A DNA stretch of 32,469 nucleotides from a virus (lineage: Duplodnaviria; Caudoviricetes), in the IMG/VR virus record IMGVR_UViG_3300044988_000216, positions 1 to 32,469 of that record. One strand, 5' to 3'. This document shows, in pieces, positions 128-31,128 of the stretch. A model generated the notes under the pieces. That model was given only the letters and a program-made list of their open reading frames with translations, was not told the DNA's origin and searched no databases. Positions within the stretch are counted from its first letter, which is position 1. Every line of letters begins with the position of its first letter. Position numbers and translations under genes: made by a program.

Positions 128-292
128 CGTTAACAATGAAATGAACCATTCATCACCCTCCGGGTTTGGTTCATCGGTTGTTAATGCATCATCCTCAATG
201 ATTTTTTTGATTTTGGTTAATGAATCAATATCATTTGATGATGCCGCCGTTTCGGTTAATTCGGCCAATTCTTGCAATTGTTCAATTGTCAT
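92..292 (-). CDS. Small acidic hypothetical protein (66 aa), possible partner or immunity protein of the MuF C-terminal domain
   Basis: ATGA overlap with the upstream MuF stop; acidic composition; function inferred from position only. Confidence 0.7.
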   Translation of the reverse strand: MTIEQLQELAELTETAASSNDIDSLTKIKKIIEDDALTTDEPNPEGDEWFISLLTAQQIEAIQKNS

Positions 293-2061
293 TCGGCAAT
301 TTTTATTGTTTTTTTATCCACTCCGATTTTTTCCAAATATTCCTCAACAAAATCAAATATTTTGGGATAATCTTTTTTCAATCCCGGATTATCAAAAACA
401 TAATATGTTAATGATTCGGCCCAAAATTCCGATAAATTAGTTTTGCCATATTCGGTTGGTGCATCATTCAAATCAAATTTTTTTCGGTTGAATAATAATT
501 TGAATTCCGTTTTGTTTGGATCCTTTGCGTTTTGAATTAAATGATTTGATTCGTGAACAATTGTTGGTGCAATGTTTTGGTTTTTGTTTAATGTGTTTGA
601 TGCCATTCGAACACTCCAAAATTTAAACCCGTTTCCATTTGGGTTTTCGTATGCAACAACCTCCAAATAACCCTTGCGTGATGATGGCCTTGCAATAACG
701 TTTCGACCGGATTCCGTTACCTTTTGTGTGTAACCATTTTTTAATAATGAATCAACATCAACATTCATTGGAACCTTTTTGAATTCAATGAAATCACCGG
801 GTTTTATTTTTACATTCAAATATGAATTATCCTTTGCACAATTCCCGTTTGCCGTTTCACTTATTGTTCCAAAGGATGCAAATGGTTGGTTAAATTTTCT
901 TCTTAATTGTTTTCCGCCATTTTCGGTTGATTCCGATGGATTTCTCAATAATGTATAAACACCTTTTTTGTTTATTATTTCAACCGAACCATCATTCCCG
1001 GATAAAACATTTGTCATTTCATCAACCATTTTTTGTGATTGACTTGTTACAAACAAACGTTTTTGAATTGTTGAATTTCCAATGTTTCGTTCAATAACAA
1101 TTTGATTTTTTAAAACATCCTTTTTAACCTCATTGATTTGTGTTTGGGTTTTTTTCGTTTCCTCGGTTGCCTCGGTTGTTTGTTCCTTTTGCAATCGTTC
1201 ACGTTGGGATTTTGTCAATTTGAACGGAATGGCCCGGTGCCGACAATTATATCCACCACGAAACACCAAAAAATTATCCGGGTTGGTTCCGGGAATCATT
1301 CCGGTTCCATTATTGTTTGCCCATGCAATTTCGGATTGCATTTCCGATTTTTCCAAAATTCGTTTCCCAACCCATCGAACACATTGTGCCCGGGAATCAT
1401 CGATGATTGATCCAACATAACGGAATGCATCCAATCCAAATTCATCGGCAATGATTGCATTAATTTGCCCATCAAATTGGCCCAATGCATCCCGGGAAAT
1501 TTGTTTCACATATCGTGAATATAAACCATTCAATTCCGGTGTTCCAACAACGTATGCCGTTAAAAAATTTTCCAAATCGGAACGGGTTGCACCACCAACG
1601 ATGTTTCGGTAAATTCCTTGTTTAACCGGTTCGATGAAATTGGCATCAACACCGGCACCGGTTAAACCATCCAATGTTTGTTGCACAACACCACGTTGGA
1701 TGGGATTAATTAAATCCTCCAATTCCTTTTTTGATAATCCATTCAATTTGGAATGAACATCAACATTGAATTCCTTTATGGTATCGAAATCACGCAAAAA
1801 TTCCCGGATGGTTGCCGGCATTTTTGATTTTTGGATTGCATCAACGATTGTTTGGTTTATGGTGTTCACCAATTCAATGTTTGAATCATTGAATTCAATT
1901 TTGCCGCCGGAAACGTTGAATTTGTCGATCAATTTTTTGATATCGGCAAAAATCAATTTTTCGGTTGGCCCTAATTGATCCAACAATTTGGATTCGGCCG
2001 TTGAAATTGTCGAATCCTTTTTTTCAATGATATCAATTATTTGTTCGGTGAATTCGGCCAT
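289..2061 (-). CDS. MuF/SPP1 gp7-like minor head protein with C-terminal HExxH metallopeptidase-like extension
   Basis: Directly after portal; 'YVGSIIDDSRAQC...GGYNCRH' MuF-type motif; C-terminal 'IVHESNH...YGKTNLSEFWAE'. Confidence 0.8.
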   Translation of the reverse strand: MAEFTEQIIDIIEKKDSTISTAESKLLDQLGPTEKLIFADIKKLIDKFNVSGGKIEFNDSNIELVNTINQTIVDAIQKSKMPATIREFLRDFDTIKEFNVDVHSKLNGLSKKELEDLINPIQRGVVQQTLDGLTGAGVDANFIEPVKQGIYRNIVGGATRSDLENFLTAYVVGTPELNGLYSRYVKQISRDALGQFDGQINAIIADEFGLDAFRYVGSIIDDSRAQCVRWVGKRILEKSEMQSEIAWANNNGTGMIPGTNPDNFLVFRGGYNCRHRAIPFKLTKSQRERLQKEQTTEATEETKKTQTQINEVKKDVLKNQIVIERNIGNSTIQKRLFVTSQSQKMVDEMTNVLSGNDGSVEIINKKGVYTLLRNPSESTENGGKQLRRKFNQPFASFGTISETANGNCAKDNSYLNVKIKPGDFIEFKKVPMNVDVDSLLKNGYTQKVTESGRNVIARPSSRKGYLEVVAYENPNGNGFKFWSVRMASNTLNKNQNIAPTIVHESNHLIQNAKDPNKTEFKLLFNRKKFDLNDAPTEYGKTNLSEFWAESLTYYVFDNPGLKKDYPKIFDFVEEYLEKIGVDKKTIKIAE

Positions 2062-2064
2062 TTA

Positions 2065-3978
2065 TCAAACGTTTGTTCCCGGTTCAATCGGTTTTGGTGT
2101 TCCCAAAATTTTCCGGGCCGTTTCCACATCAATCCCATAAATCACATTCAACAATTCAATTGCCGCCGCAAAATCGGTTATTCCATTGGCAACCGATTGT
2201 TGAATTTGCAAAATACCTTGCACACCACCAACCGATCCTTTCAAATTGGCTTGGGCCTCGGCTTGGGTACGTTGGAATTCGGGATCAACCGTTGGTGCAT
2301 CGATGTTGATGATGGTTTTGGGCACATATTTTTCAATGATCGGTGCCATTGCATCATCCAATGCCAAAAACAATTCCGGCAATGGTTTTTCCAAAAACTC
2401 CGTTCCGTTCAATGCCACCAAATTTGTTAATGTTCTGTATGCATACAATGAACGGATTAAATCGGCCTTTTGAATTGTTCCGGATGCCAACAACATTTGT
2501 TTATCGGTTGTTTTGATGTTGAACAATGGATCATAGGAAACCAATGTTTCAACCATTCGTGTAACCGATTTGTTGCCGGAAAAACGTTTCCGGGCCAAAT
2601 CCTTGGTTGATTCAACCAAAAATGCAACCGGTGCATTTTTATCACTCAACGTTGTGATTTCGGCAATCAAATCCGATTCCGTTTTCATCGAAAATGAAAT
2701 TGGTTTCACAATCACCGGTGCAACCGGTTCGATCACGTTTCGATATGCCTCAATGAACAACAATGATTTGTAGATTATTTCATCAAATATGTTGTTCGAA
2801 ATTTTGGTTAATTGGGAAAACGAATCCTCACGATCAATTTGTTTTGCAACCCCGGATTGTGATTCATCGATCACGTTTAAATGCAATGATTGTTCGGCCT
2901 TTTTTAATAATGTTTCCCATGCATTGCCCGAATATTCGATGATATCCACGGCCGGTGATATGAACCTCAACATTGGTTCGGATGAATTATCACCACCCAT
3001 TGCATTGTTTCCCTTTTCACGCATGAAAACACCGAATGGTGAACGTGAAATCACTTTGCCGGTGCCCTTGCAATTGCCACAACGTTCATGTTCATCGTTT
3101 TCCGAATTGTAAACAACACCATCCCGGCAACCCTTTGCCGAACATGTTTCGGCCATTTCCTCACGATATGGGAACGCCGATGTTGTCATTACCGCCGTCC
3201 AATCGGAATATTGCCGGATTGCCTCATTGGCAAATGGAATGAATGCCGAAAAATACGAATCGAAAAAATTTTCATCGGTGTAATCACCACCCAAAATCAC
3301 GGCCGGAACGGAACCAATGTTGTGTTCATAAATCAACACGGTTTCAAATTTCCGATCATGTTTTTGCCCGAATTGAATGTGTTTGTAATATCCGGAATCG
3401 GTTAATGTGTAATAAATTGAACCGGATTGATCCAATTTGCCATTCACCCGAACCATTGATTTTTCATCCTCCGATTCCCATGTTATGATGCCATGATCCA
3501 AAATTTTAATTTCATCACTCATAATCAACACCGGTTGCACATCAACTTTGATTGCCGGGTTGATTAAACCATCACCAACGGGAATCCAAACCAAATAACC
3601 GTTCGGATCTTCGATCATCCTCCGAACAACATATTTTTGGATGTATGAATAAAAATATTGCCCATCGAATTTTTGTTCACTCAAATATGTGTTCAATTCA
3701 TCCGAAACGGAAATTGAAAAATTGGCACCTTGGAAAATCCGGAACAATTTATCAATGGCACGATTCATCGAACCTTTTGTGATTGGTTCATAAATCGATA
3801 ATCGATATTTTTTCACATCCTCATCCTCATTTGGCCGCCGCCGGGTTAAAATTTCCCCGGGATTTTTTCCACGTGTATGGATGAACATGTTATCCCGAAC
3901 CCGGTTCCAATGCTCATAATTTTTGGGCCGATATTGTTCATTGGCCAACAATGATGGTATTTCCTCAATCGATATCAT
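2065..3978 (-). CDS. Portal protein with inserted four-Cys zinc-finger-like segment
   Basis: 637 aa, upstream of MuF, scaffold and capsid; 'QSGVAKQID' resembles the SPP1-type portal SGxA motif; 'CSAKGC...CGNCKGTG' insert. Confidence 0.75.
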   Translation of the reverse strand: MISIEEIPSLLANEQYRPKNYEHWNRVRDNMFIHTRGKNPGEILTRRRPNEDEDVKKYRLSIYEPITKGSMNRAIDKLFRIFQGANFSISVSDELNTYLSEQKFDGQYFYSYIQKYVVRRMIEDPNGYLVWIPVGDGLINPAIKVDVQPVLIMSDEIKILDHGIITWESEDEKSMVRVNGKLDQSGSIYYTLTDSGYYKHIQFGQKHDRKFETVLIYEHNIGSVPAVILGGDYTDENFFDSYFSAFIPFANEAIRQYSDWTAVMTTSAFPYREEMAETCSAKGCRDGVVYNSENDEHERCGNCKGTGKVISRSPFGVFMREKGNNAMGGDNSSEPMLRFISPAVDIIEYSGNAWETLLKKAEQSLHLNVIDESQSGVAKQIDREDSFSQLTKISNNIFDEIIYKSLLFIEAYRNVIEPVAPVIVKPISFSMKTESDLIAEITTLSDKNAPVAFLVESTKDLARKRFSGNKSVTRMVETLVSYDPLFNIKTTDKQMLLASGTIQKADLIRSLYAYRTLTNLVALNGTEFLEKPLPELFLALDDAMAPIIEKYVPKTIINIDAPTVDPEFQRTQAEAQANLKGSVGGVQGILQIQQSVANGITDFAAAIELLNVIYGIDVETARKILGTPKPIEPGTNV

Positions 3979-3979
3979 T

Positions 3980-5065
3980 TCAACATGTTAAATTTTTGGA
4001 ACAATCACAATATTCAAATTGCAAATCGGCACACCACAATGAACCGGTTTCGTTGTTTTTGGGGAATTCACCTTGGAATTGATATTCACGGCCATTGATG
4101 TAAACATCGGCACCGGCAATGATGGTTGCCAATAAACGGGCAAACCTCAACGGCATTGGCATCGTTCGCAACAACCATGTTTCACACAATTCCATTCCGG
4201 TTGTTTTCCGGGATGATTCAATCACGTTTTTGGTGATGGTGAAATTGGTTGGTTCAAAATATCCGGGAACCCGGATTTGATTTGAAAATTGGAATGGTGT
4301 TCCGGCTTGAATATCGTTCCAATCCGATCCGAAATATTGGCCAAAACAATCCGTTGATGAATAACGTGAATCGATCAACACCGATTTTGGTTTTTCCAAA
4401 CATGTTTCCAACCGGAAATTTTCGGTGCAAAAACAATCAACGTTGTTGAAATTGATTGGATATGGGATTGGCAATTGGTTTTTTGAAAAACAAAATTTGA
4501 AATAAAAACATGGATCATCACCCAATGAAATCATGTGTTCGGCAATTGCACCCAAATCGAATTGGATTTGTTGGATTTGGTTTTCCGATAATGTGCCGGC
4601 ATAATTGGCCAAATTGAATGTGCCCACAAACGATCCAACAACAAAATCATTGAACAATGCCGAATCAACAAAAACCAATGAATCATCACAACATTTTCGG
4701 ATTTCGAAATATGCAAACGGATCGGTTGTGATCAATGTTCCATTTGATGCCCAACCCGTGTTTGATGATGTTGCATTCGGTTGTTGGAATTGGAATGTGT
4801 ACAAATCACCGGATTGAAATTGATAACAAAACGGCAAATCATTCCCACACAAATCATTGTTCCATGTATCGGAACATTCACACAAAACCAATCCATTGTT
4901 TACAATTGTTCGTGAACAATCTTCATTGGTTCCACAAAACACGTTTATTTCATTGCAAAACAAACGAACCAATGGATCGGGTTTTGGGCTGCAATCAACC
5001 GATAAATCACAAAATGTTTGTGCCGGGTTGGTTGGGTTGATGTACGAATCGAATAAATATCCCAT
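3980..5065 (-). CDS. Cys-rich putative tail/structural protein (361 aa)
   Basis: Tightly packed after the tail-tip genes; about 22 Cys by hand count. Confidence 0.6.
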   Translation of the reverse strand: MGYLFDSYINPTNPAQTFCDLSVDCSPKPDPLVRLFCNEINVFCGTNEDCSRTIVNNGLVLCECSDTWNNDLCGNDLPFCYQFQSGDLYTFQFQQPNATSSNTGWASNGTLITTDPFAYFEIRKCCDDSLVFVDSALFNDFVVGSFVGTFNLANYAGTLSENQIQQIQFDLGAIAEHMISLGDDPCFYFKFCFSKNQLPIPYPINFNNVDCFCTENFRLETCLEKPKSVLIDSRYSSTDCFGQYFGSDWNDIQAGTPFQFSNQIRVPGYFEPTNFTITKNVIESSRKTTGMELCETWLLRTMPMPLRFARLLATIIAGADVYINGREYQFQGEFPKNNETGSLWCADLQFEYCDCSKNLTC

Positions 5066-5067
5066 GT

Positions 5068-7899
5068 TTACAAAATGGATTCACTCCAATATCCACATAA
5101 CAAATATAAACCATTTGCCAACGAATTTGAATCCAAAATTGCCGTTGCACAATATGAACCACCACCAACGGCACTGAATGATGAATCCAACGAAACAACA
5201 TTCAACAATTGAGGAAATCCATTTGGTGATGGTTGGTTTTCCGATTCCCGGATTGTGATTTGGTTTCCATCCGGTGATGGTTCGGCAAAAAATATGAATT
5301 CACCGGATTGGTTGGCACAATATGTTACACGCAACGATTGAAAATCGGATGGGCAAAACGGGCCGGTTATGTTCACCCATGATGTTCCGTTGAACCCTTG
5401 GAAAACCATTGATTCAATAATTGGTGGAAATCCCGAATTATCCGGTTCATTTTGGATTGCCAACACCTTGAATGATTTAACCAAATTGATTTGATATGGT
5501 GATCCAAACAAGGATGTGAAATCAAACGTTAAAATGTATTCATAATAAATTTCATCATCACGCCAATCGTTGGTTGCACCCAATGTTGCAATGTAACCGG
5601 CCGCCAATGCCCCAACCGGTGTTCGGTTCATGTAGGTTGCATTATTGGCAATGAAAACATCGGATGGATTGAATGCCGTTTGTTCCCATCCAACACGCCG
5701 AATGAATGATGTTTCAATTTCGGATGCCGGGCCGGTATCGGAAACAATCAAATTTGTGGTGTTGTTCCAATTTCCCGGGAAACCAACAACACGTGATGAT
5801 TGCAATTGATTGATCATCAAAAATGTTGTTTGGCCAACAACCGGGAAATCCAATGCACGTTTGTAAACGTTCAACCTCATTGTGGTAACATAATCCAACC
5901 AATCATTTGAATTTGGCCATTCGGAAATGCATGTTTTCAAATCCCCAACATTCCATGTTGTTTGATGCATTAATCGTTCCTTTGCCACGGGCCGGATGCA
6001 ATCACCGGTTGAATCCAAATAATATTGTTTCCATGTTGAATCAACATCCGGTTGGCATTCCTCACAACTAAATGTTGGTGTATTGGTAACCAACAAAGGA
6101 TCGGAAATGAATGTGTTAACCATGTTCACCGTTGAATAAACAATGGCCATGATTCGATATTGATGCCCCATCACAACATTGGTTCCAATGTATGCCGTGA
6201 TTTCGTAATTACCACCACCCAATGAAACAATTGATGATGGTGATTGCAAATTGTTGTTCAAAACTGAAATCCCCGGGATGGTTGTAATTATTGCCCGTGA
6301 TGAATCATAATTCGATAAAAAATCAACGGTGTTATCGGTTGTGGTTTCATCAAACAATTGAAAAATTGTTTTGTTATGAAAACCAACCGGAATGTTTATT
6401 GAAAATTTTACCTCCGTTTTTTGGATGGTTGACAAATTCAAAACCGGAACACCGGAACGTTCAAAAACGAATGCCGGGTTGATGAATTCGGATGGGCCAT
6501 TATACAACCCTTTGTTGTACCAACGGGCCGTGTATCGAACCGAAACGATATTCCAACAACGTGTTGGTTGTGTTGGAACCGTGTTTGGTGGAACAACAAC
6601 CAATGTGTTTGGATCGATTAAATAAAGCAACCCACACAACCGTTTGTTGATTTTGTAAACCGATGGAAATGTGTTTTGATAAACGGCATTCAATGCCGGA
6701 ATCACGGCATTTACATCCGTTCGCCTCCATTTCGGTGAATTGGAATGCAACAAATTGGTGATCCAATTATCAAAATCGTTGATCATGAAAAATGAAAAAC
6801 GAATTTTGAATGCATCCGGGCCAACATATTCAAATTCACATTCCCAATTCAATTGATTCAAAACATTCACGCCGGCCCCAACCAATGGCATCGATTGCGG
6901 CCCGGAATCCAATGAATTGTATTGATAATAAAATGCAACCGGTGGTGGATTATTAATGGAACCGGTTGGATATAATGAACCGAAATCACAATTGTTTGAA
7001 AACAACCACGGATTGAAATAAAATTCCATGTTATCCGATAACCCGGTTGGATAATTGAATTGATATTCAACAATCTTTTTTTCACCAACGGCCGCCAAAT
7101 CAAAAATGGTTGCATCATTACAATTTAATACAACATCATCCATTGCCTTGGCATCCTCCGATTCGGTTATTATGGTAATGCTTTCACAACACAAACATTC
7201 ATCACATGGCCCGGCACATGGTGAACCATCACGATTTGTTGATTGGCCCGTTACGGTGATTGGAATAATGATTCCATCACAAATTTCAATGTTTATTGTG
7301 CAATTCAATTGTTGGCATTCAAATTCCGGTTCCCACGTGATGAATGTGCAATCCGTATCCAATCCACCCGGATCAACATTCAAAACACTTGGTGATGGTT
7401 TAACGCCAATTCCACAATCGGAAACATCAATTGTGAATTTTGTTTGGCACAATGTCGCATTTGATGTGATGCAAATTGTTTGTGGTGATGATGTTGTGCC
7501 AATTGGAACGATTCCAAAATCAATTGCCGAAACATCAACCGTTCCGGCCGGTGCCGGGCCAAAATCAAATTGGTGATTTTCCAATCCATGTTCGGCCGAT
7601 GTGATCCCAATTATTAAAACATCAAAATCCTCCCCCGGATCGGCACAAATTGTTAATGTAAATTGAAAACCATCACCCGGATTTAATGATTGCGGCAATG
7701 GTGGAATTGAATTTAACACAACCGTGAATTCACCGGCCGCAAATGATGCCGTGATCCCGGTTAAACTCATTTTTTGATTGTTGATGTTCGTGATTATGCA
7801 CGTGATTTCGCAACAACATCCCGGATAAATCAAATTTGTAATTGCACCCGGTGTTCCGGTTTCACTTATGCAATTGTTAAATTCCCAACGGTTTGGCAT
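5068..7899 (-). CDS. Large Cys-rich tail protein or adhesin with N-terminal Ig-like beta-sandwich segments (943 aa)
   Basis: Downstream of tape measure; beta-rich; 'VDVSAIDFGIVPIGTTSSPQTICITS' resembles ASH/choice-of-anchor-D Ig-like domains; about 31 Cys. Confidence 0.6.
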   Translation of the reverse strand: MPNRWEFNNCISETGTPGAITNLIYPGCCCEITCIITNINNQKMSLTGITASFAAGEFTVVLNSIPPLPQSLNPGDGFQFTLTICADPGEDFDVLIIGITSAEHGLENHQFDFGPAPAGTVDVSAIDFGIVPIGTTSSPQTICITSNATLCQTKFTIDVSDCGIGVKPSPSVLNVDPGGLDTDCTFITWEPEFECQQLNCTINIEICDGIIIPITVTGQSTNRDGSPCAGPCDECLCCESITIITESEDAKAMDDVVLNCNDATIFDLAAVGEKKIVEYQFNYPTGLSDNMEFYFNPWLFSNNCDFGSLYPTGSINNPPPVAFYYQYNSLDSGPQSMPLVGAGVNVLNQLNWECEFEYVGPDAFKIRFSFFMINDFDNWITNLLHSNSPKWRRTDVNAVIPALNAVYQNTFPSVYKINKRLCGLLYLIDPNTLVVVPPNTVPTQPTRCWNIVSVRYTARWYNKGLYNGPSEFINPAFVFERSGVPVLNLSTIQKTEVKFSINIPVGFHNKTIFQLFDETTTDNTVDFLSNYDSSRAIITTIPGISVLNNNLQSPSSIVSLGGGNYEITAYIGTNVVMGHQYRIMAIVYSTVNMVNTFISDPLLVTNTPTFSCEECQPDVDSTWKQYYLDSTGDCIRPVAKERLMHQTTWNVGDLKTCISEWPNSNDWLDYVTTMRLNVYKRALDFPVVGQTTFLMINQLQSSRVVGFPGNWNNTTNLIVSDTGPASEIETSFIRRVGWEQTAFNPSDVFIANNATYMNRTPVGALAAGYIATLGATNDWRDDEIYYEYILTFDFTSLFGSPYQINLVKSFKVLAIQNEPDNSGFPPIIESMVFQGFNGTSWVNITGPFCPSDFQSLRVTYCANQSGEFIFFAEPSPDGNQITIRESENQPSPNGFPQLLNVVSLDSSFSAVGGGSYCATAILDSNSLANGLYLLCGYWSESIL

Positions 7900-7910
7900 A
7901 TTTTACAAAA

Positions 7911-9677
7911 TTATACAATCCCGGAAACGGCAATTGTTCGGTTAATGAAATTGATTTTTACCTCCTTAACACGGCCATAAACGATTGAACCGTTTTTCGG
8001 CAACCTTACAACCTTATTGAAATCGAAATCGGCCAATTGTTGGCACGAAAACGGAAATGAAAAATTGAAATTGAATTGTGTTGATCCCGGCAAACGTGGA
8101 TCATCGATGTAATGAAACAATGAATATAAATTGTTTGTGTTTCCCTCTTTAAACCAAAACGGATAATTGAACAAATCATCCGGATCGATGGTATTTCCAT
8201 CAACGATCACCGGGCCACCGGTGAATGATTCATCGAATTGATGAACGATTTTCCCGGAATCCATGTTTTGCCCATCCCAAATCAACAATTTGTAGTTAAA
8301 ACCACAATGGTTGTTCAACATCATTTGGTTTTCATCATTGGAAAAAATCCCATAGAAAAAAACATTGATCAAACCACCTTGGTAAAATGATAAAATATCA
8401 AAAATGGTTCCCTCACCATCAACATCATCACCCCGGAAACGGGCCATTGATAACGGCAAAATGTTTTGATATTGGCCGGATTGCGTGATGTTAAACGGGA
8501 TGTTCCATTCAACAATATCGTTGTATCTTAATTTGGCCTCATTTCCAATGATATCCAATGCATCCATCGAATATTCAAATCGGCCGAATGCCCATCGTTC
8601 ACGATCAATCCATGAATAACATATTTGGTTATCAATGATGTTGCCATTGTTCAACATTTGTTCGGCATCAATCCATGTTGTTGTGGATTGGAAAAAATCA
8701 CGCCGTTCAAAAATCAATGTGTTTCCAACAATTTGATAATCACCATTAAATGTTGGTTTCAAAACATTATCCAACAACGTTTGCAATGTTTCGATTGGTT
8801 TGTTTTGCTCAATCAAACCACCGGATGGAATCGAATTCAAAATCCCCTTTTCAACCGGTGAACTCCACAACAACGTGTTGAAATAAAGTGATGCCGGATC
8901 ATTCAAAATTGAGGATTGAAAATTCAAACCACACAAACCACATGTTGTTGAAATGTACGAACGCAACAACCCGGATGGATGTTTCCGGTTGCATGTATCA
9001 AAAAAACCAATCACATCATTCACCGAATCTTGCAACGAATCCAAAATGTTGGTTGGTGATAATTGGGCATCATCACAATCGGATTGTGTGCAATCGGTTA
9101 ATGGCAAAAAACAAACGATTGAACACAAAACAAAAAACAATCCGGATAACAACAAAATCAAAACCAAAAACGGCAATAAAACAAACGAAATGATGTTCCC
9201 AATCAATGCCAACAAAATCGAAATCACGATTTGAACGAATTTTGGCCGATGTTCAATGCAATATGGCACATCAACATAATCACGATCATTGATAAATGGT
9301 GAATTTTTTAATCGAACCACAATTGATTCAAGGCATGAATATGCATCATCGATTTCAACCACGTTTGCCGTAACCGAACACGCCGGTTCACACCAATCGA
9401 TTGCATCACCCCGAATATATCCCTCAAAAACCGGAACGGAACAACAATCATCATAAATTTTCACATCAACTTTTTTCCCGAATCCATTAACATCATCAAT
9501 CAATTGTGTTTTGATGATATTATATCCATCATCATAAAACGTTAATTCGGATGTAAATGAACGGGCCGTTTTGCCGGCATCATCCTCACGCCGCAATGTT
9601 ATTTCGAAATTGGAAACACCATCAACACGGCCGGTGATCAACGTGTTGTTGATTTTGATTTTCATTGATGAATTCAT
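7911..9677 (-). CDS. Putative tail tip/hub protein with internal hydrophobic hairpin (588 aa)
   Basis: Immediately after tape measure; about 45-aa uncharged hydrophobic stretch; about 16 Cys. Confidence 0.6.
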   Translation of the reverse strand: MNSSMKIKINNTLITGRVDGVSNFEITLRREDDAGKTARSFTSELTFYDDGYNIIKTQLIDDVNGFGKKVDVKIYDDCCSVPVFEGYIRGDAIDWCEPACSVTANVVEIDDAYSCLESIVVRLKNSPFINDRDYVDVPYCIEHRPKFVQIVISILLALIGNIISFVLLPFLVLILLLSGLFFVLCSIVCFLPLTDCTQSDCDDAQLSPTNILDSLQDSVNDVIGFFDTCNRKHPSGLLRSYISTTCGLCGLNFQSSILNDPASLYFNTLLWSSPVEKGILNSIPSGGLIEQNKPIETLQTLLDNVLKPTFNGDYQIVGNTLIFERRDFFQSTTTWIDAEQMLNNGNIIDNQICYSWIDRERWAFGRFEYSMDALDIIGNEAKLRYNDIVEWNIPFNITQSGQYQNILPLSMARFRGDDVDGEGTIFDILSFYQGGLINVFFYGIFSNDENQMMLNNHCGFNYKLLIWDGQNMDSGKIVHQFDESFTGGPVIVDGNTIDPDDLFNYPFWFKEGNTNNLYSLFHYIDDPRLPGSTQFNFNFSFPFSCQQLADFDFNKVVRLPKNGSIVYGRVKEVKINFINRTIAVSGIV

Positions 9678-9680
9678 GTT

Positions 9681-12600
9681 TTATGCCTTGTTTCGAATTC
9701 GTTGGTTTTTGTATTGAATCCGGGAAACGATCCCATTGATTCCACGTTCATCAATTGATAAACTCAATCCCTTTTGTTCACGAACGGCACGTTCAATCCC
9801 CTCCAATCGTTTTTCCATTGTTGATGTGTTGAATCGGTTTGATTCCGAAATTGAATTCACCAAAAATGGATTTCGGCCCATGTGGATTTGTTCCAACAAT
9901 GGCCGGAAACGTTTTGTTTTTTCTTTGGTGATAACGAATTCACCACGGTGAACAACACCGGCCGGTTCATATTTCCCACCATCACCCGTGTAACCACCGG
10001 ATGCAAATGAACCGGCCGCCGATTGGGCTTGGGCTTTGGCCGCAACCAAACCGGCCGCCAATGCAATCAATGTTGCCGCAATGGTGAATGGTGCCGCCGC
10101 CCCACCCTCGGCCGCCGCTTTGGATATTGCCACGGCCGAATTGGCAACCAATTCAATGGCCGCCAATGCTTGTTGGGCACGAACGAATTTTGCCCGTTTC
10201 TCATTCAATTTGGTTAAACGATCCTCCTCAATTTGTAACAATTCGGCATTCCCCTTTTCGGCAATCTTTGCGGCATCATTGATCCGTTTTTGTTGCCCGG
10301 TGATTTGGGCATCGGTTTGTGCAATTTGGGCATCGATCACGGCATTGGCCAATTGCAATGTTGCTTTGGCAACATCCTCAATTCCTTTGATGATTGCATC
10401 ACGCCGTTTTTTGGAATCCTCAATTGATGATTGGGTTAATTCATCATCCAATTGGGCCAATTGATCGTTGAAACCTTGTCGAATCTTTAAAATTTCCAAA
10501 TCGGTTTCCTTTTCAAGTAAAACACGGCCCTCCGATGTTAATTCACCGGTTGCCAATTCGGCATCACGCCGTGATTCAATTGCCGAAATTTCCAATGATT
10601 CACGTTCACCCAATGATGCCCGAACATCGGCCAAATTGGAATCCAATGCATCACGCAAATTTTGTTTTTCGGTTTGGTTTTTGGCATTTTCAAATTGTTC
10701 GAACAACAATGCACGTTGGTTCAATAATTCATTGGTGAATTGTGTTTCGTTTTCAATTTGGGTTTCGATATCGATTTGATCGATTTCGGCCAACAATTGT
10801 TGCCGTTTTTTTGCGGCATCGGTTTCGATGGTTGTGATTTCGTTGTTTGTATCATTGGCCAATTTGATTTTTTCCAATTTCCGGATTTGCTCAAATTGTT
10901 TTTCGATTTCGCCGGTTAATGTTCCGGCATCCCGGGCCTTTTGAATTCGATCGGTGATCGTGTTATCAATTGCCTCCGATTGTATTTTGGCCAATTCCAA
11001 AACACGTTTTTTTTCATCCTCCGTTGATTGTGGTTTTGATAACTCAATCGGTTGTTGCCTAACCTCCAACGACAAATCCCGGATTTCATTTTTCAAATCG
11101 ATCAACAAATCACGCCGTTGTTCGGCCAATTTTGCGGCCGCTTTGCCGGCCTTTTCATCCACATCCGATGTGATCCGGGTTGATTTTGCGGCATTGGATG
11201 CCAATTCATCGATTGCATTTTGTGTTTCAATGATGGATTGTTCGTTTTGGGCAATTTGTTCATCGATTTGATTTCGCCGGGCACGATTCCCGGATGCCAA
11301 TGCCGCCGTTTGTTCGATGAAATCCGATGATGATAATTGCCCGGCCTTACGTTGTTGCTCCAATCGTTGGGTTTCCCGGGCAACATTTGCATCACGTTGG
11401 TTTTGCAATGTTTTTTCGGCCGCCAATTGTTTTTGGGTTTGTTCCAATCCCAATTTTTGTTCACTTAATCGAACAATTGCATTCCGGGATGCCTCCGATT
11501 CGGCCGCCGATTTGATGGATGTTGCCAATTTGATATACTCGGCATCCAATGCCGCAATGAATTTGGTTTCATCCTTTATGTTTTTGATGGTTGTGCCATA
11601 TTTGGAATTCAATTCATCAACCAATTTTTTCCGTTCGGTTGATCCGGTGTTTGCCTTTTTAATTTCACCAACCAATTCATCCAATGCGGAAATTTCCTTT
11701 GCCGTTTCGGCATTGGTTATTTTTTGGGATTCGGCCAATGCCGATTGGGCATTCAACAATTGTTCGGTTGATTGTGCCGATTCATCAACGGCATCACCAA
11801 AATCGAGAAAAAATGCCGCCGCCGTTGCAACAACCGATAAAATCAAACCCAATGGGTTGGCACGAATCACGGCATTGAATGTTTTTTGTGCCGTGGTTGC
11901 AATCCCGGTTGCAACGGATTGTGCCCTCAATTGGCCCGTTAACAATCCCGTGGTGGTTGCTGCAATCCGGGTTGCACCGGTTGAAACACCCCGGGCAATT
12001 GCCAATGCACGTTCCCGGGCAACCGAAATCAATTTTTGGGCATTGGATATCAATTCAACTTGCAATGCCGTTTTTTGTTGCCCAACATAAAATGCAACGG
12101 CACCACCCAACAACAACAATGATGTTTTGTTTTCCTCAATGAATTCCGGGATTTGTCGAAATCCATCAATCAATTTGAACGCCGAATCCACGGCCGTTTC
12201 GAAAACGGGCAACAACCCGGTTCCAATATCACGTTTCAATTGTTCGAAATTTCCGGTTAATGTGGAAATCCGGCCGGCCGTTGAACCGGCCAATTTTTCG
12301 GTTAACCCAAAAAACCGGCCACCCTCCGATGTTAACGATTGGAATGCACGTTCCAAATTGGCAAATGTGATTTTTCCCTCCGATCCCAATTTTTTCACGG
12401 CCGATTCCGAAACCCCAAATTGTTTTGCAAATTCGGTGATCACGGGCACACCGGCCTCCGTTAATTGGTTGATATCCTCGGCAAACAATGTTCCTTGCAC
12501 CCGGGCTTTGCCATAAATAACGGCCAATTCATTGAAATCTTTGCCGGTTGCCGATGATACATCACCGATTCGTTGCAATGATGTTGTTAATTGATCCACC

Positions 12601-12995
12601 GGTTCACCGAATGCCAACAATGCTTTGCCGGCTTGGTTAACTTGTTCCGGTGTGAATGGTGTTTTGATCGAAAATTCCTCCAATTCGGCAAACACCTCCT
12701 TTGCCTTTTCGGCCGAACCCAAAAACGTTTCCAACGATATTTGCACCGATTCATAATCGGCAACCGCTTTGATTGCACCACGGCCAAAATCAATTGCCGA
12801 TGATGCAACCGATATTCCACCGAACGCCGCCGCCGCCCCGGTTAATGCCCGTTTCAAACCGCCCAATTGATTTTCGGCACCTTTTGTTACACCACCCAAA
12901 TCACGCAATTGTGATTTTACGGCATCCAATTCCCTTTTCAAACCGGTTGTATCGGCTTGTAAACGGAACAACACATTTTTCACACCATCGGCCAT
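9681..12995 (-). CDS. Tape measure protein (1104 aa)
   Basis: Ala-rich helical/coiled-coil sequence; N-terminal 'KTPF...' tape-measure region; C-terminal 'FASGGYTGDGGKYEPAGVVHRGEFV'; follows the frameshifted chaperone. Confidence 0.93.
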   Translation of the reverse strand: MADGVKNVLFRLQADTTGLKRELDAVKSQLRDLGGVTKGAENQLGGLKRALTGAAAAFGGISVASSAIDFGRGAIKAVADYESVQISLETFLGSAEKAKEVFAELEEFSIKTPFTPEQVNQAGKALLAFGEPVDQLTTSLQRIGDVSSATGKDFNELAVIYGKARVQGTLFAEDINQLTEAGVPVITEFAKQFGVSESAVKKLGSEGKITFANLERAFQSLTSEGGRFFGLTEKLAGSTAGRISTLTGNFEQLKRDIGTGLLPVFETAVDSAFKLIDGFRQIPEFIEENKTSLLLLGGAVAFYVGQQKTALQVELISNAQKLISVARERALAIARGVSTGATRIAATTTGLLTGQLRAQSVATGIATTAQKTFNAVIRANPLGLILSVVATAAAFFLDFGDAVDESAQSTEQLLNAQSALAESQKITNAETAKEISALDELVGEIKKANTGSTERKKLVDELNSKYGTTIKNIKDETKFIAALDAEYIKLATSIKSAAESEASRNAIVRLSEQKLGLEQTQKQLAAEKTLQNQRDANVARETQRLEQQRKAGQLSSSDFIEQTAALASGNRARRNQIDEQIAQNEQSIIETQNAIDELASNAAKSTRITSDVDEKAGKAAAKLAEQRRDLLIDLKNEIRDLSLEVRQQPIELSKPQSTEDEKKRVLELAKIQSEAIDNTITDRIQKARDAGTLTGEIEKQFEQIRKLEKIKLANDTNNEITTIETDAAKKRQQLLAEIDQIDIETQIENETQFTNELLNQRALLFEQFENAKNQTEKQNLRDALDSNLADVRASLGERESLEISAIESRRDAELATGELTSEGRVLLEKETDLEILKIRQGFNDQLAQLDDELTQSSIEDSKKRRDAIIKGIEDVAKATLQLANAVIDAQIAQTDAQITGQQKRINDAAKIAEKGNAELLQIEEDRLTKLNEKRAKFVRAQQALAAIELVANSAVAISKAAAEGGAAAPFTIAATLIALAAGLVAAKAQAQSAAGSFASGGYTGDGGKYEPAGVVHRGEFVITKEKTKRFRPLLEQIHMGRNPFLVNSISESNRFNTSTMEKRLEGIERAVREQKGLSLSIDERGINGIVSRIQYKNQRIRNKA

Positions 12996-24065: not shown

Positions 24066-24096
24066 AAAAAAAAACACCGGAACCACCCGGTGTTTT
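24066..24096 (-). terminator. Rho-independent terminator ending the late operon
   Basis: AAAACACCGG-6 nt-CCGGTGTTTT stem ending in a 9-nt T run on the minus strand. Confidence 0.75.
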
Positions 24097-24201: not shown

Positions 24202-24615
24202 TTATGCATTAACGTTTCGTTCGGTTATGGCCAACGTAACGTGTGAAATCGATGCAACCAATATGAACCACCACCAACCGATTCCGGTTTCACCACGGGT
24301 TGCCAAAAACATGAAAAACGTAACCCAAACGTTCATGCAGTACATGCAACCACCCAATGGTTTGGCCATGAATTTGAATGGGTTTGGATTTAATGATTTG
24401 AACCATTCCAAACCACGGCCCCAAAAACCGAAAATTTGTTCCGGTTGAATGAGGAAATCAATGAAAATTGAAATGAATGCCGATGAAACACCAACCATCA
24501 ACATCATGGTTGGTTTGTCGAATCCACCACCAACCATTTTTCCAATGGTGAAACCAAACATGGCCCCAATCGTGATGAATAAAAATTGATTGAATGATTG
24601 TTTTATATTTTTCAT
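24202..24615 (-). CDS. Multi-pass membrane protein with CxxC motif (DUF1360-like)
   Basis: About four hydrophobic segments; 'KPLGGCMYCMNVW' at the start of a TM helix. Confidence 0.65.
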   Translation of the reverse strand: MKNIKQSFNQFLFITIGAMFGFTIGKMVGGGFDKPTMMLMVGVSSAFISIFIDFLIQPEQIFGFWGRGLEWFKSLNPNPFKFMAKPLGGCMYCMNVWVTFFMFLATRGETGIGWWWFILVASISHVTLAITERNVNA

Positions 24616-24617
24616 GA

Positions 24618-24923
24618 TCAACATTGTGGGATTATTCCGGAAACCTCAAATGAACATGCCCCATCCTTTGATGTTGCATAATACATCCCATATTGGGAAA
24701 AATTGATATCAAATTTGATTTTGATGATGGTTGTTGAATTCTCATTGAATGTGAACGGCAACAACAACGGTGTTCCAAAATCGGCCTCAAATGATATTGT
24801 TGTGAAACCGGAATTGGAAAAAATTTCGGCCGTGTAAAATCCATCATAAGGTGCCAAAATCCCGAAATCAATATTTTGCCCGGGAATAAAACATCCTAAA
24901 TTTTTGGTGCATCCACAATTCAT
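24618..24923 (-). CDS. Small Cys-rich putative virion protein (101 aa)
   Basis: 'MNCGCTKNLGC' start; beta-rich; 5 Cys; late operon. Confidence 0.6.
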   Translation of the reverse strand: MNCGCTKNLGCFIPGQNIDFGILAPYDGFYTAEIFSNSGFTTISFEADFGTPLLLPFTFNENSTTIIKIKFDINFSQYGMYYATSKDGACSFEVSGIIPQC

Positions 24924-24952: not shown

Positions 24953-25516
24953 TTAACACGATCCGGAACATGGATGCAAACAATATGCATCCAATGCCAT
25001 ATCACGATCCCCAACCAAATCAAAATCGAATGCAACCATTGTTAAATGTTTGGAAAATGGTTTGGGTTTCTTGGATGGTGATTCGGCCGTTGCAACCGAA
25101 ATTGGATCAACGATCGATTCAACCGGGATGATTGAAACATTGGCAAATGATGCCGTTGATTGCAATGGTGCATTCATCACCCCAAAACGTATTGATTCCT
25201 CCAAACAAAATGGATCAACATTTTTCAAACATGCAACAATCCTCAATTCATAACGAACCCGGAAAAACGATTGCATTGATGCAAATTTTTTGTTTGTGGA
25301 TGCATCCGAAAAATTGATCCTCCCATCATCACGTGTTCGAACGTACATCCAACCATCATCCAAATCATTGATGCCGGCGAAAACATATTCATTTGATGTT
25401 TTATCACGAATCAAAACACGGTTTTCATCATCGATTTTGGCCAATGCAACCGATTTTTTTATTTCCGGAATCGATCGTTTAACCGATTCAATGATGGTGT
25501 TGATGTATTCAATCAT
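24953..25516 (-). CDS. Putative tail terminator/completion protein (187 aa)
   Basis: Size and position after the neck gene; C-terminal Cys cluster. Confidence 0.5.
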   Translation of the reverse strand: MIEYINTIIESVKRSIPEIKKSVALAKIDDENRVLIRDKTSNEYVFAGINDLDDGWMYVRTRDDGRINFSDASTNKKFASMQSFFRVRYELRIVACLKNVDPFCLEESIRFGVMNAPLQSTASFANVSIIPVESIVDPISVATAESPSKKPKPFSKHLTMVAFDFDLVGDRDMALDAYCLHPCSGSC

Positions 25517-25962
25517 AATTTGTTGAATGCCTTTAAAAATTCATCCTCAAATAAATCGTTGATGTATTTTTCGGTGTTATCACGTTCGTTTTCGGTTGGC
25601 AAAAAAATCGTTTTGTTTCGCCGTTTTTCTTGGCCAATGGCCTTTTGGTAATCATCATCATTGATGATTGCAATGAACACATCGTTTCCACGTTTCACAA
25701 CTTGGATTGAATTGAACAAATCCCCGGTAAATTGCAAATCAACAAACCCGGTTTGCCTCCCATTCAATGAACGGGTTTTGATCCACGATTTGGATTTGTA
25801 TTTCCCAATTGATTTATCATTCGAATCCTTACCATCATTGAAAATTCGGCCCAACATTTCACCCAACAAATCCAATCCACCCAAATAAAGAACATCACCA
25901 CGGGTTGATGCAACGGCCGTTGATAATGTGGAAATCCGATTCAATAAAACATCCAATTCCAT
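25513..25962 (-). CDS. Putative neck/tail-completion (virion morphogenesis) protein (149 aa)
   Basis: 'VDLQFTGDLFNSI' matches LxxTGxLxxSI; TAATG overlap defines the start MELDV. Confidence 0.6.
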   Translation of the reverse strand: MELDVLLNRISTLSTAVASTRGDVLYLGGLDLLGEMLGRIFNDGKDSNDKSIGKYKSKSWIKTRSLNGRQTGFVDLQFTGDLFNSIQVVKRGNDVFIAIINDDDYQKAIGQEKRRNKTIFLPTENERDNTEKYINDLFEDEFLKAFNKL

Positions 25963-26360
25963 TATCGTTTGATTTGCAAAATGATGGATAAAACCAAAAC
26001 CAAAAACGTGATTCCAACCAACCACCACGGGATGTTTTTTTCATCAACACGTTCGTGTTTCACGATGTTTTGGATAACCTTTTCAATCCGGATTGTATCA
26101 CCCGGGCAAATCGTTTTCACGAAAACCGAATCATTCACCCGAACCAATTGTGTTTCAATTTTGGTTTTCCAATCCCGGATGAATATTGTATCACGGGATT
26201 GAAATGATACCAATGTATCAAATGATTTTGAATTGGTTATGATGGTTGTATCACGAATAATTGTTTCAACCGATGCCGGGAATTTTTCCATGCATCGTTT
26301 TTCGGTAACGCAACCGGAAAACAACATCCACAAAACGATCAATCCAAATGTAAATTTCAC
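25962..26360 (-). CDS. Lipoprotein with C-terminal TM helix, unimolecular-spanin-like
   Basis: Signal peptide with lipobox 'LFSGC'; beta-rich middle; C-terminal 'WWLVGITFLVLVLSIIL'. Confidence 0.65.
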   Translation of the reverse strand: MKFTFGLIVLWMLFSGCVTEKRCMEKFPASVETIIRDTTIITNSKSFDTLVSFQSRDTIFIRDWKTKIETQLVRVNDSVFVKTICPGDTIRIEKVIQNIVKHERVDEKNIPWWLVGITFLVLVLSIILQIKR

Positions 26361-27231: not shown

Positions 27232-28176
27232 TTATGGCAATCCTTGAATGTAACGTGATTGATTGCACGTGATACAAATATCATCCATCCGGGCAAATAA
27301 TCCCGGCAATTGTTGCACGGCCGTTTCGAAATGTGAATTGTATTGTTTTTCAAATTCACCCAACATGAATTCACATTTTTCACCATCCAACAACGTAACC
27401 GAATTCAAACGATCGGTTGTTTTTGCCTCCTTTACAATTTCAATTCCGGCCCGGTACAAAATCGGAAATCGAATTTTTTGGGCCAAAACACATGCAATTT
27501 CATCCAATGAACATTCGGCCGCCACGTTAACCGATAAACCAAATGATGATGATGATGTGCCCAATCCATTCCATCCGTTTCCGGTTAAAAAACGGGATTT
27601 GGCCGTTGTGCAATTGCATGATGATTTCACCTTTGTGTTATTCACGTTGATTGCCGAATTATCCGTTGTGATGTATATTTCGGCACCATCGGATAAGTAA
27701 TCCGGGAATATTTCGGCAAATCCACTCAAATCCGTTGTGAATGGATATTGGGTTGTGAAAATTCCATCGGTGATGGTTATGTTTCCCGAATAAACGGCCT
27801 CAACGATTCGAATTTGAACCGATTGAACACGAATCCGAACCATCCGGGATTCCCGGGTTGTGATTCGAAAACCACGTTCATTGGGATTGGGGATCAAAAA
27901 TGTTGGTTGCCAATCACCGGTTTTCAATTCATCAATCAACGAATTCATCCGGAAATAAGGCATTGCAAATTTTGCAATTTCATCCAAAACCAATTGGGTT
28001 GCAAAATTTATTTTGGATTCAATCAATGAAATCCCGGATTGGTAACCGGAATCGGCAACATCGGCCGCAAATCGTAAATTGATCCCCTCCAAATCATCAA
28101 TCCACAAACCGGATTTCGGTTGTGTTTGTGAAACACATTTGATTCCAATAAAATTATCAAAACAATTTGTTGCCAT
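27232..28176 (-). CDS. Putative head-tail adaptor/structural protein (314 aa)
   Basis: Helical N and C termini with beta-rich centre; 9 Cys; late-operon position. Confidence 0.5.
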   Translation of the reverse strand: MATNCFDNFIGIKCVSQTQPKSGLWIDDLEGINLRFAADVADSGYQSGISLIESKINFATQLVLDEIAKFAMPYFRMNSLIDELKTGDWQPTFLIPNPNERGFRITTRESRMVRIRVQSVQIRIVEAVYSGNITITDGIFTTQYPFTTDLSGFAEIFPDYLSDGAEIYITTDNSAINVNNTKVKSSCNCTTAKSRFLTGNGWNGLGTSSSSFGLSVNVAAECSLDEIACVLAQKIRFPILYRAGIEIVKEAKTTDRLNSVTLLDGEKCEFMLGEFEKQYNSHFETAVQQLPGLFARMDDICITCNQSRYIQGLP

Positions 28177-29522: not shown

Positions 29523-30065
29523 TTAGATTCCATCTAAATTCACCGCAACGCCACATGGCATTGTTACGGCATTCCACGTGATTGTTCCATCAAAAAAGAT
29601 TGAACCGGTGTTGTTATCTTCGATAACTTGATCAACCTCAATTTGGAACGATGCAATTGGGCCATAAAAATAACCATCACATGTGTAGTAACCAACTTGA
29701 TAATTGGTTGCACCGGCTTGAATGGTGTTCCAAAACGTTACATCGGCACATGAATCCGGATCACTGTTGTAATCTTGGAATGTGATTGATTTTTCGCCTC
29801 CGATAACACCCTCCGGGCCACATGATGAAAAACGTTTTTTGGTGAATGATCCTTTGGGTTTTTGGCCCAAAATCAAACCCGTTAAAACTACATCCCCGGA
29901 TGCAATTGCCGCAATCCATTCCTCACGTGATTCAATATCGGTGAACTCATAATCACATTTAATGAACGCCAATTTGGAAATCCCACCATTCCGGGTTGTA
30001 ACGCCGCAACCTTGGGAATAAGACACCGGTAATGCCGGCGCACATGCACTTGTACATAATGCCAT
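29523..30065 (-). CDS. Probable major tail tube protein (180 aa)
   Basis: Beta-rich; adjacent to the capsid gene before a terminator, suggesting high copy number; no other tube candidate; a decoration protein is the alternative. Confidence 0.55.
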   Translation of the reverse strand: MALCTSACAPALPVSYSQGCGVTTRNGGISKLAFIKCDYEFTDIESREEWIAAIASGDVVLTGLILGQKPKGSFTKKRFSSCGPEGVIGGEKSITFQDYNSDPDSCADVTFWNTIQAGATNYQVGYYTCDGYFYGPIASFQIEVDQVIEDNNTGSIFFDGTITWNAVTMPCGVAVNLDGI

Positions 30066-30102: not shown

Positions 30103-31128
30103 TTAATCACAACCAACGATTGTTGAACAATCTTCGAAATCGAATGTGTAATTAACGCCAACGTTATCATCACCGGCACCGAACGCATTGGCCGGAATGA
30201 AAAACAATCCCCAATTCAAAAACATTTTGATGCTCCATTCATCGGCACAATCATCATAATGAACTTTCAAATCGTATGTTAACCCGGTGAATGGATCGGT
30301 GATTGTTCCATGTTCAAACACATCATTGCGTTTTGCATAATCACCAACATATTTGTTCCATGTTACCAATTGAACGGCACCCGGTGCCAACACGATGAAA
30401 TGGTTTGCACCAATTTCCGATTCAACAAAACGATCATTGAAATACATGTAATCCGTCCAACGGGCCATATCGGTGCCGGTTGTTGAATTGCAACATGCAA
30501 TTTGTTGTGTTTTTGCATACAAATCGAAATTGCCCGAACCAATGATCATTGGTGCCCCGGAACCACCAACCAAATCATATTCGTGGCGAATTTGTGCCGC
30601 CGCAATTGAACGTGGTGAATTGGTTGTTGCTTCAAACAATTTCACTTGTTTCAATTGTGTTCCATCGGAAAAATTCCCAAAATTGGTTGATTGTAATGCC
30701 AACAATTGTTTGTTCAAACCAACATTCAATGCATTCATTTGTGCCATGATCACATTTGAAACATAAACCGAATCGGCCTCACACAATTTTCGCATTTCAT
30801 CCTCAACAAATTTCATTCCCTTGGTTTCCAAACAGTTTTCAACCTCGAAAATGGTTTGTTTTGGTGCCGGTTCACGGGTTGTATCACACGAATTGGTGCA
30901 TGTGAAATTCACATCGGCCACCGTTCCACGTTGGATGTAATCGATTTGCACGGCACGATATTTCCCGTTTGATGGAACCGGGATTGCCTCAAATCCGGCA
31001 CGATTTTCCTCACTCATTAATGCATCAACGTAACCAACACGATCACGTTTTAATGCCGGTGCATTCGAACCGGCAACCGCATTCAAACTTGTTTGCAATT
31101 TTTGGCATAAGCCCTCTGTAAACGCCAT
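30103..31128 (-). CDS. Major capsid protein (341 aa)
   Basis: Follows the scaffold; size typical of HK97-fold capsids; strong A-rich leader before MAFTEG. Confidence 0.75.
   Translation of the reverse strand: MAFTEGLCQKLQTSLNAVAGSNAPALKRDRVGYVDALMSEENRAGFEAIPVPSNGKYRAVQIDYIQRGTVADVNFTCTNSCDTTREPAPKQTIFEVENCLETKGMKFVEDEMRKLCEADSVYVSNVIMAQMNALNVGLNKQLLALQSTNFGNFSDGTQLKQVKLFEATTNSPRSIAAAQIRHEYDLVGGSGAPMIIGSGNFDLYAKTQQIACCNSTTGTDMARWTDYMYFNDRFVESEIGANHFIVLAPGAVQLVTWNKYVGDYAKRNDVFEHGTITDPFTGLTYDLKVHYDDCADEWSIKMFLNWGLFFIPANAFGAGDDNVGVNYTFDFEDCSTIVGCD

Follow-up and report, generated by a model that had tools for sequence, protein, structure and literature searches.

The phage genome and its late gene block

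The window analyzed here, a stretch of 32,469 nucleotides taken as a whole, is the record of a complete 32.5-kb phage with direct terminal repeats, and its minus strand holds nearly all of the genes. Searches against PHROG and Pfam named the terminases, tape measure protein, portal, MuF-like protein, amidase, holin candidate, Bet/RecT, and SSB; the capsid, tail tube, and adaptor roles were assigned from size and position only, as were, in part, the other virion labels. Given the terminal repeats, the late block is taken to read from the terminase through the tail and portal genes and over the record ends to the capsid and tail tube genes. Its last gene, on the minus strand at 24202–24615, encodes a membrane CxxC protein, and 106 bp beyond the stop codon (24096–24071) there is a hairpin with a T run that resembles a terminator; since four such sites occur in the region where 1.8 are expected, the terminator call rests on position. 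The features considered below are as follows.

24202..24615, minus strand: membrane CxxC protein, 137 aa; distant DUF1360/phrog_781 relative (phrog_781 E 8e-4) and candidate thiol oxidase
24071..24096, minus strand: intrinsic-terminator-like hairpin closing the late block; 11 pairs, T run
24618..24923, minus strand: 101-aa Cys-rich ORF with 5 Cys and no family match; possible virion protein or relay
24953..25516, minus strand: probable tail-completion protein (inferred); 5 Cys
27232..28176, minus strand: probable head–tail adaptor; 9 Cys
29523..30065, minus strand: probable tail tube protein, its 8 Cys found in 27/27 close homologs
30103..31128, minus strand: probable major capsid protein, following a scaffold-like ORF and named from size and position; 10 Cys, with co-varying pairs
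3980..9677, minus strand: three probable tail-tip ORFs after the tape measure gene; 588, 943, and 361 aa, with 16, 31, and 22 Cys
9681..12995, minus strand: tape measure protein; 0 Cys in 1104 aa, an internal contrast

The major capsid candidate had no PHROG or Pfam match. The preliminary description of this locus had placed the CxxC gene at the end of the late operon, beside cysteine-rich virion genes, and this arrangement was borne out both by the hairpin and by the cysteine content, which is 2.61% in twelve virion-type ORFs versus 0.66% in 14 others. Furthermore, the CxxC gene closes the same block in all 34 related IMG/VR loci, with the 101-aa Cys-rich ORF immediately upstream of it in 33 of them. 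The host may belong to the Bacteroidota, a guess based on a capsid homolog (P0272) in a Flavobacteriaceae bin; scanning of GTDB genomes with family sequence patterns found no close homologs of the CxxC protein.

Other genes of the window also carry distinctive features. The product of 25962–26360 (minus strand), kept in related loci, has a lipoprotein signal, a lipobox Cys, two extra Cys, and a C-terminal hydrophobic helix, a layout which we take to be that of a unimolecular spanin. The MuF-like minor capsid protein (289–2061, minus strand) has a variable C-terminal zincin-type (HExxH) domain with a sub-threshold Pfam ATLF match; among relatives it ranges from 293 to 596 aa, and some have no MuF-like protein beside the portal. 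The portal itself (2065–3978, minus strand) contains a short Cys cluster (CxxxxC...CxxC) resembling a zinc-finger insertion.

Structure, conservation, and topology of the CxxC protein

The 137-aa product contains the motif GGCMYCMNVW, and C90 and C93 are its sole cysteines. An alternative upstream ATG at 24624 would give a 140-aa form; a 70%-identical homolog (P0002) begins at the Met of the 137-aa form. Hydropathy maxima lie at residues 19, 46, 97, and 121 (1.49, 2.06, 1.33, and 1.67), and an AlphaFold2 (AF2) model built from 114 sequences (pLDDT 87.5, pTM 0.72) has helices at 2–30, 34–56, 63–74, 79–89, 91–110, and 114–136. From these helix limits, the CxxC caps the N-terminus of the membrane helix 91–110, past two short loop helices, in agreement with the earlier count of about four transmembrane segments and a CxxC at a helix start.

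Both cysteines are kept in 113 of 114 homologs found through a word index, the lone exception being a truncated sequence. An index-free profile search yielded 1260 clusters at E ≤ 1e-3, and the CxxC was present in 128/128 new matches among the 150 listed; in the 150-sequence alignment, C90 and C93 are the only invariant columns, a conservation that is partly a matter of selection because the search profiles weight those two columns. The CxxC is thus conserved, as an oxidase would lead one to expect. A third Cys occurs at the end of helix 2 in 42 of the 114 homologs, and no other Cys column is higher. C93 is followed by M in 88 and by F in 11 of the 114, and a c-type cytochrome or heme-c motif was ruled out by the absence of CxxCH. 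A Trp or other aromatic residue four positions past C93 is nearly invariant; this position presumably corresponds to the site of quinone contact in DsbB and VKOR.

Mean Lys/Arg counts are 1.1 at the N-terminus, 0.15 in loop A, 5.4 in the CxxC loop, 0.5 in loop C, and 1.25 at the C-terminus, and in 114/114 homologs Lys/Arg are more numerous on the CxxC side, which also has the longest loop, than in the short outer one. This charge bias predicts an N-in topology with four helices and a cytoplasmic CxxC.

Family assignment

The sequence comparisons indicate that the protein is a distant relative of DUF1360/phrog_781. The window protein itself did not match DUF1360 (PF07098) at the gathering cut-off of 21 bits, and PF07098 weakly matches 16 of the 114 homologs (best E 0.0013). 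The named members of DUF1360 considered here are mycobacteriophage PG1 gp7, Gordonia phage Bizzy gp12, crAss001 gp97, and a protein of a Bacillus sporulation locus. The family profile matches PG1 gp7 (E 1.3e-5 per genome), Bizzy gp12 (9.6e-8), and crAss001 gp97 (8e-17), and the profile matches with DUF1360/phrog_781 members are reciprocal; PG1 gp7 and Bizzy gp12 pass the PF07098 cut-off, and crAss001 gp97 is annotated as DUF1360. The profile–profile alignment with bacterial DUF1360 (hhalign 39%, E 3e-4) covers the CxxC and both following helices, and the relation to DUF1360, initially put forward as a check, is thereby supported. Moreover, the atlas similarity is 0.93 to a cluster that is 42% DUF1360, and among predicted viral structures a crAss001 membrane protein comes nearest (TM 0.63).

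The AF2 models of the window protein and of DUF1360 have an identical order of elements, namely a helix, an amphipathic loop, a CxxCxxxW opening a membrane helix, and a further helix. The window protein differs in having an extra N-terminal helix and KPLGG and IFG motifs, whereas DUF1360 has RxTxL and DxI. In literature searches covering DUF1360, phage VKOR or sulfhydryl oxidases, and inverted VKOR/DsbB, with most subscription papers outside the search, the DUF1360 family had no assigned function and was not described as an oxidase.

A CxxC at the start of a membrane helix is the arrangement of the oxidases DsbB and VKOR. The window protein resembles these in being a small membrane protein with a CxxC at a helix N-terminus, and a similar chemistry is proposed for it by analogy, but its CxxC is predicted on the cytoplasmic side, in the opposite orientation, and no DsbA-like partner was found in the genome; nor did PHROG and Pfam searches find a thioredoxin-fold partner among the 40 window ORFs. 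Relatives of VKOR or DsbB were sought with Pfam, Foldseek, and VIA without a match, and the VKOR and DsbB Pfam families matched 0 of 114 members at E ≤ 0.1. VKOR is described as combining a CXXC motif with a second CXnC pair serving the disulfide carrier (PMC13486548); the CXXC is present in the window protein and the second pair is absent.

Paired cysteines in virion proteins

The capsid set comprised 116 full-length homologs kept of 120, with four fragments dropped. The number of cysteines is even in 105 of the 116, whereas the numbers of W, H, M, Y, F, and P are even in 47–57%; after thinning by identity, an even Cys count is found in 38/45 sequences (<70%) and in 16/21 (<60%, p 0.013). C77 and C99 are both present in 70 sequences, no sequence having just one of them, and C69 and C317 co-vary with a phi of 0.95. 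Because cysteines are gained and lost pairwise, disulfides fit better than four-Cys metal sites. Virion disulfides in this lineage are thus inferred from paired cysteines only, unlike the bonds of Jabs, Milano, crAss001, and NBD2, which were seen by cryo-EM; the likeness to those phages lies in cysteine-rich outer proteins and a Cys-free tape measure protein.

Phages with published virion disulfides

The Jabs virion is reported to contain ~1,700 disulfides, the bonded cysteines being C271, C281, C347, and C563 of MCPh, C97 of MCPp, and C19, C60, C79, and C131 of the tail tube protein (10.64898/2026.07.24.740622). Two proviruses that served as proxies for Jabs, L431 and L458, have the same protein lengths with cysteines at exactly the Jabs positions, and both carry a DUF1360 gene 28 bp before the portal gene. 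Mycobacteriophage PG1 likewise keeps all nine Jabs-type cysteines. In crAss001, disulfides are described in the tail barrel, fibre hubs, and gp57 (PMC10172136), and the family member gp97 is encoded outside the structural block. Conversely, nine virion proteins of Bxb1 contain 2 Cys in all and those of TM4 have 0–3 Cys each, and the gene was not found in either phage with the family profile and phrog_781. A weak phrog_781 match in TM4 (E 0.018) was rejected, as it lies inside a 458-aa frame and has no family-profile match.

Virion disulfides are also reported for Milano (PMC10491603), NBD2 (PMC13576161), and, as cited in the Jabs preprint, Pam3 (10.64898/2026.07.24.740622), and none of these three phages gave a match to the family profile or phrog_781. 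NBD2 and Pam3 are Cys-poor except for single proteins, and by these sequence searches Milano is a real counter-example to the necessity of the gene. Milano gp4 (L036:3913–4158), of 81 aa, has a CPCC before a C-terminal hydrophobic helix and is encoded immediately upstream of the terminase. Proteins of this type were found only in Milano, 7-7-1, and OLIVR4, all three with Cys-rich virions. Membership of gp4 in the present family was rejected, as hhalign and profiles gave it no support; it is a possible analog.

Distribution of the gene and of cysteine-rich virions

In a sample picked by capsid similarity, with a query drawn from gene-positive phages, 41 of 80 records were searched (most already-seen and short ones were left out), and the CxxC gene was found in 24 of the 41, six of which were previously known positives, including 14/14 at ≥90% completeness. 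In the control, 34 records picked by terminase (the longer among 80 loci, only four being ≥90% complete), the family profile and phrog_781 found the gene in none. In the terminase-downstream modules of the control sample (n=44), the Cys content is 0.60% at the median and reaches 1.52 at most, versus 2.19 in this phage. The gene hence tracks Cys-rich rather than Cys-poor virions, as the oxidase proposal implied, with the near-complete relatives (14/14) and the controls (0/34) at the two extremes. A motif scan, in which 26 of 51 loci were examined (the rest having already been seen), gave three false matches and five loci where the capsid is 22–25% identical with 6–9 Cys, the adaptors have 9–11 Cys, and the CxxC gene is kept. 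Because the gene and the Cys-rich capsid never occur apart within this lineage, their co-occurrence there counts as one event.

DUF1360 phages in bulk have ~1% Cys, and the capsid protein of Gordonia phage Bizzy has two. At 56 of 79 phage loci, the gene that follows DUF1360 is portal-like, and the position of the CxxC/DUF1360 gene differs among phage lineages. In the large low-GC viral contigs L472, L476, L483, and L495, DUF1360 comes after a run of 200–360-aa ORFs and is followed by small Cys-rich ORFs, a layout unlike the portal-adjacent one.

Cellular members and spore-coat loci

A pattern scan of cellular genomes, biased to the Bacillus spacing, gave 120 loci, 80 of them with flanks. In 42 of these 80 DUF1360 loci, the 42 belonging to Bacillaceae, the opposite strand carries a CotZ/CotY gene (PF10612, 8% Cys), at ≤360 bp in 37. 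Among 81 Bacilli genomes, DUF1360 occurs in 8 of 12 with cotZ versus 12 of 69 without it, so that 4 of 12 cotZ genomes have no DUF1360 and 12 of 20 DUF1360 genomes have no cotZ; the two genes lie within ~2 kb of each other in 7 of the 8 genomes having both, one of the 8 being the centre genome, chosen for both. Bacillus subtilis carries a PF07098 match, which we take to be yjcA. The yjcA gene is reported to be under sigma-E control (PMC517825), and CotY is reported to make disulfide-linked arrays in Escherichia coli with no such gene added (PMC4950064).

At loci without cotZ (L047, L076, and L098; Geobacillus, Paenibacillus, and others), DUF1360 is often near other Cys-rich ORFs, including a 235-aa family that is present in 17 loci, has 5.3% Cys, and is unmatched in Pfam, and a 173-aa ORF with 11 Cys. 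In CPR bacteria, which are not known to synthesize quinones, no Cys-rich neighbor was seen at the DUF1360 loci. The DUF1360 proteins of CPR loci L045, L050, L063, L090, and L112 have an extra N-terminal helix, and in three of these five loci ribonucleotide-reductase-like genes, so labeled from N-terminal sequence and size, lie nearby.

Proposed function and alternatives

Four settings link the CxxC family to cytoplasm-built, disulfide-bonded shells, namely this lineage, crAss001, cluster B-type actinophages, and spore crust loci, and the simplest role common to them would be an inward-facing oxidase recharged in the membrane. With confidence a little above even, we favor the reading that the protein is a membrane thiol oxidase which faces the cytoplasm, acts on virion cysteines, and probably hands the electrons on to quinone, on the grounds of the invariant CxxC at a helix start, the position at the end of the late block, the paired virion cysteines, and the co-occurrence across lineages. 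Late in infection, the oxidase would put disulfides into the paired cysteines of shell and tail proteins. The C90–C93 disulfide would be handed to virion thiols, directly or via the small Cys-rich neighbor, and would be re-oxidized by membrane quinone as in DsbB and VKOR, but by a member of a different family facing inwards; quinone is suggested as acceptor from the chemistry of those two enzymes. The original proposal of a phage-encoded disulfide-forming oxidase acting on virion cysteines therefore stands in part: paired cysteines, conservation, and co-occurrence speak for it, and the bonded virions of Milano, NBD2, and Pam3, which have no detectable homolog, speak against it. Also on the contrary side are the CotY arrays formed unaided in E. 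coli, the incomplete overlap of cotZ and DUF1360 among genomes, the low bulk Cys content of DUF1360 phages, the location of crAss001 gp97, the CPR loci, and the distance of the DUF1360 link. The oxidase would probably speed bond formation rather than uniquely permit it.

Since sequence cannot give the direction of electron flow, roles as a reductase/isomerase and as a non-catalytic anchor have to be weighed as well. A reductase or isomerase would keep virion cysteines free or reshuffle wrong bonds, with the final bonds forming in air after lysis, and would account for the same co-occurrence of the gene with Cys-rich virions. We consider it unlikely, as the host cytoplasm already holds thioredoxin-type reductants, PHROG and Pfam showed no thioredoxin-fold partner among the 40 window ORFs, and the placement of the CxxC is that of the DsbB/VKOR oxidases, even though disulfides do arise in phages without the gene (Milano, NBD2, and Pam3) and the Jabs preprint proposes bond formation during or after lysis (10.64898/2026.07.24.740622). 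A membrane anchor or metal-binding assembly factor, for example with Zn held between two CxxC motifs in a dimer, would place head or portal assembly at the membrane; two cysteines per chain would be enough, a third Cys occurs in 42/114 homologs, and the frequent location just before a portal-like gene fits. Such a factor appears about as improbable as the reductase, because it leaves unexplained the paired virion cysteines, the absence of the gene from Cys-poor phages, and the cotZ/cotY neighborhood, and because the gene does not keep one position across lineages.

A role in lysis, as a holin or as an accessory that might, for instance, oxidize the spanin-like lipoprotein on the periplasmic side, would suit the small size, membrane location, and late position of the protein, whose gene has those of an amidase, the holin candidate, and the lipoprotein with its extra cysteines nearby. 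The window protein matched no holin family, although one of the 114 homologs did so weakly (E 0.02), and a separate holin candidate (phrog_565) exists alongside the amidase; the charge bias predicts the CxxC inside, and family members are encoded in spore loci and ahead of portal genes rather than with lysis genes. The holin named at the outset as a competing explanation is accordingly not favored, and a lysis role is very unlikely. Extremely unlikely is true membership, in reduced form, of the VKOR or DsbB family. The CxxC that opens a membrane helix just behind an amphipathic one and the near-invariant aromatic residue at the presumed quinone-contact position recall these enzymes, but the lack of the second cysteine pair, the opposite predicted orientation, the lack of a match in the Pfam, Foldseek, and VIA searches (0/114 by Pfam), and the profile link to DUF1360 instead mean that the label "minimal VKOR-like" is not supported as family membership.

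Viral precedents and significance

The inward-facing thiol oxidase favored here would have a precedent in the poxvirus/NCLDV pathway (E10/A2.5/G4, Erv family), by which viruses likewise form virion disulfides in a reducing cytoplasm with enzymes of their own; that pathway uses FAD-dependent Erv oxidases and a thioredoxin-fold carrier, unlike the small CxxC membrane protein of this phage. The view that such a pathway had not been described for tailed phages agrees with two 2026 reports: disulfide machinery is stated to be undescribed in phages (PMC13576161), and the Jabs preprint calls the catalysis of virion disulfides an open question (10.64898/2026.07.24.740622). Disulfide-stapled virions themselves are known.

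More broadly, and with confidence slightly short of even, the DUF1360-like superfamily may represent a third class of disulfide-generating membrane enzymes, one that faces the cytoplasm and has no relation to DsbB or VKOR. It would be shared by tailed phages (this lineage, crAss-like phages, and cluster B-type actinophages) and sporulating Bacilli and would cross-link large shells before release. The cross-linking of spore-crust proteins in the mother cell is described as unsettled (PMC4950064), and one named gene family makes this question and that of phage-virion cross-linking testable by single knockouts. If the proposal is true, such a small oxidase, facing inwards, would also be a useful tool for producing disulfide-bonded proteins in the bacterial cytoplasm.
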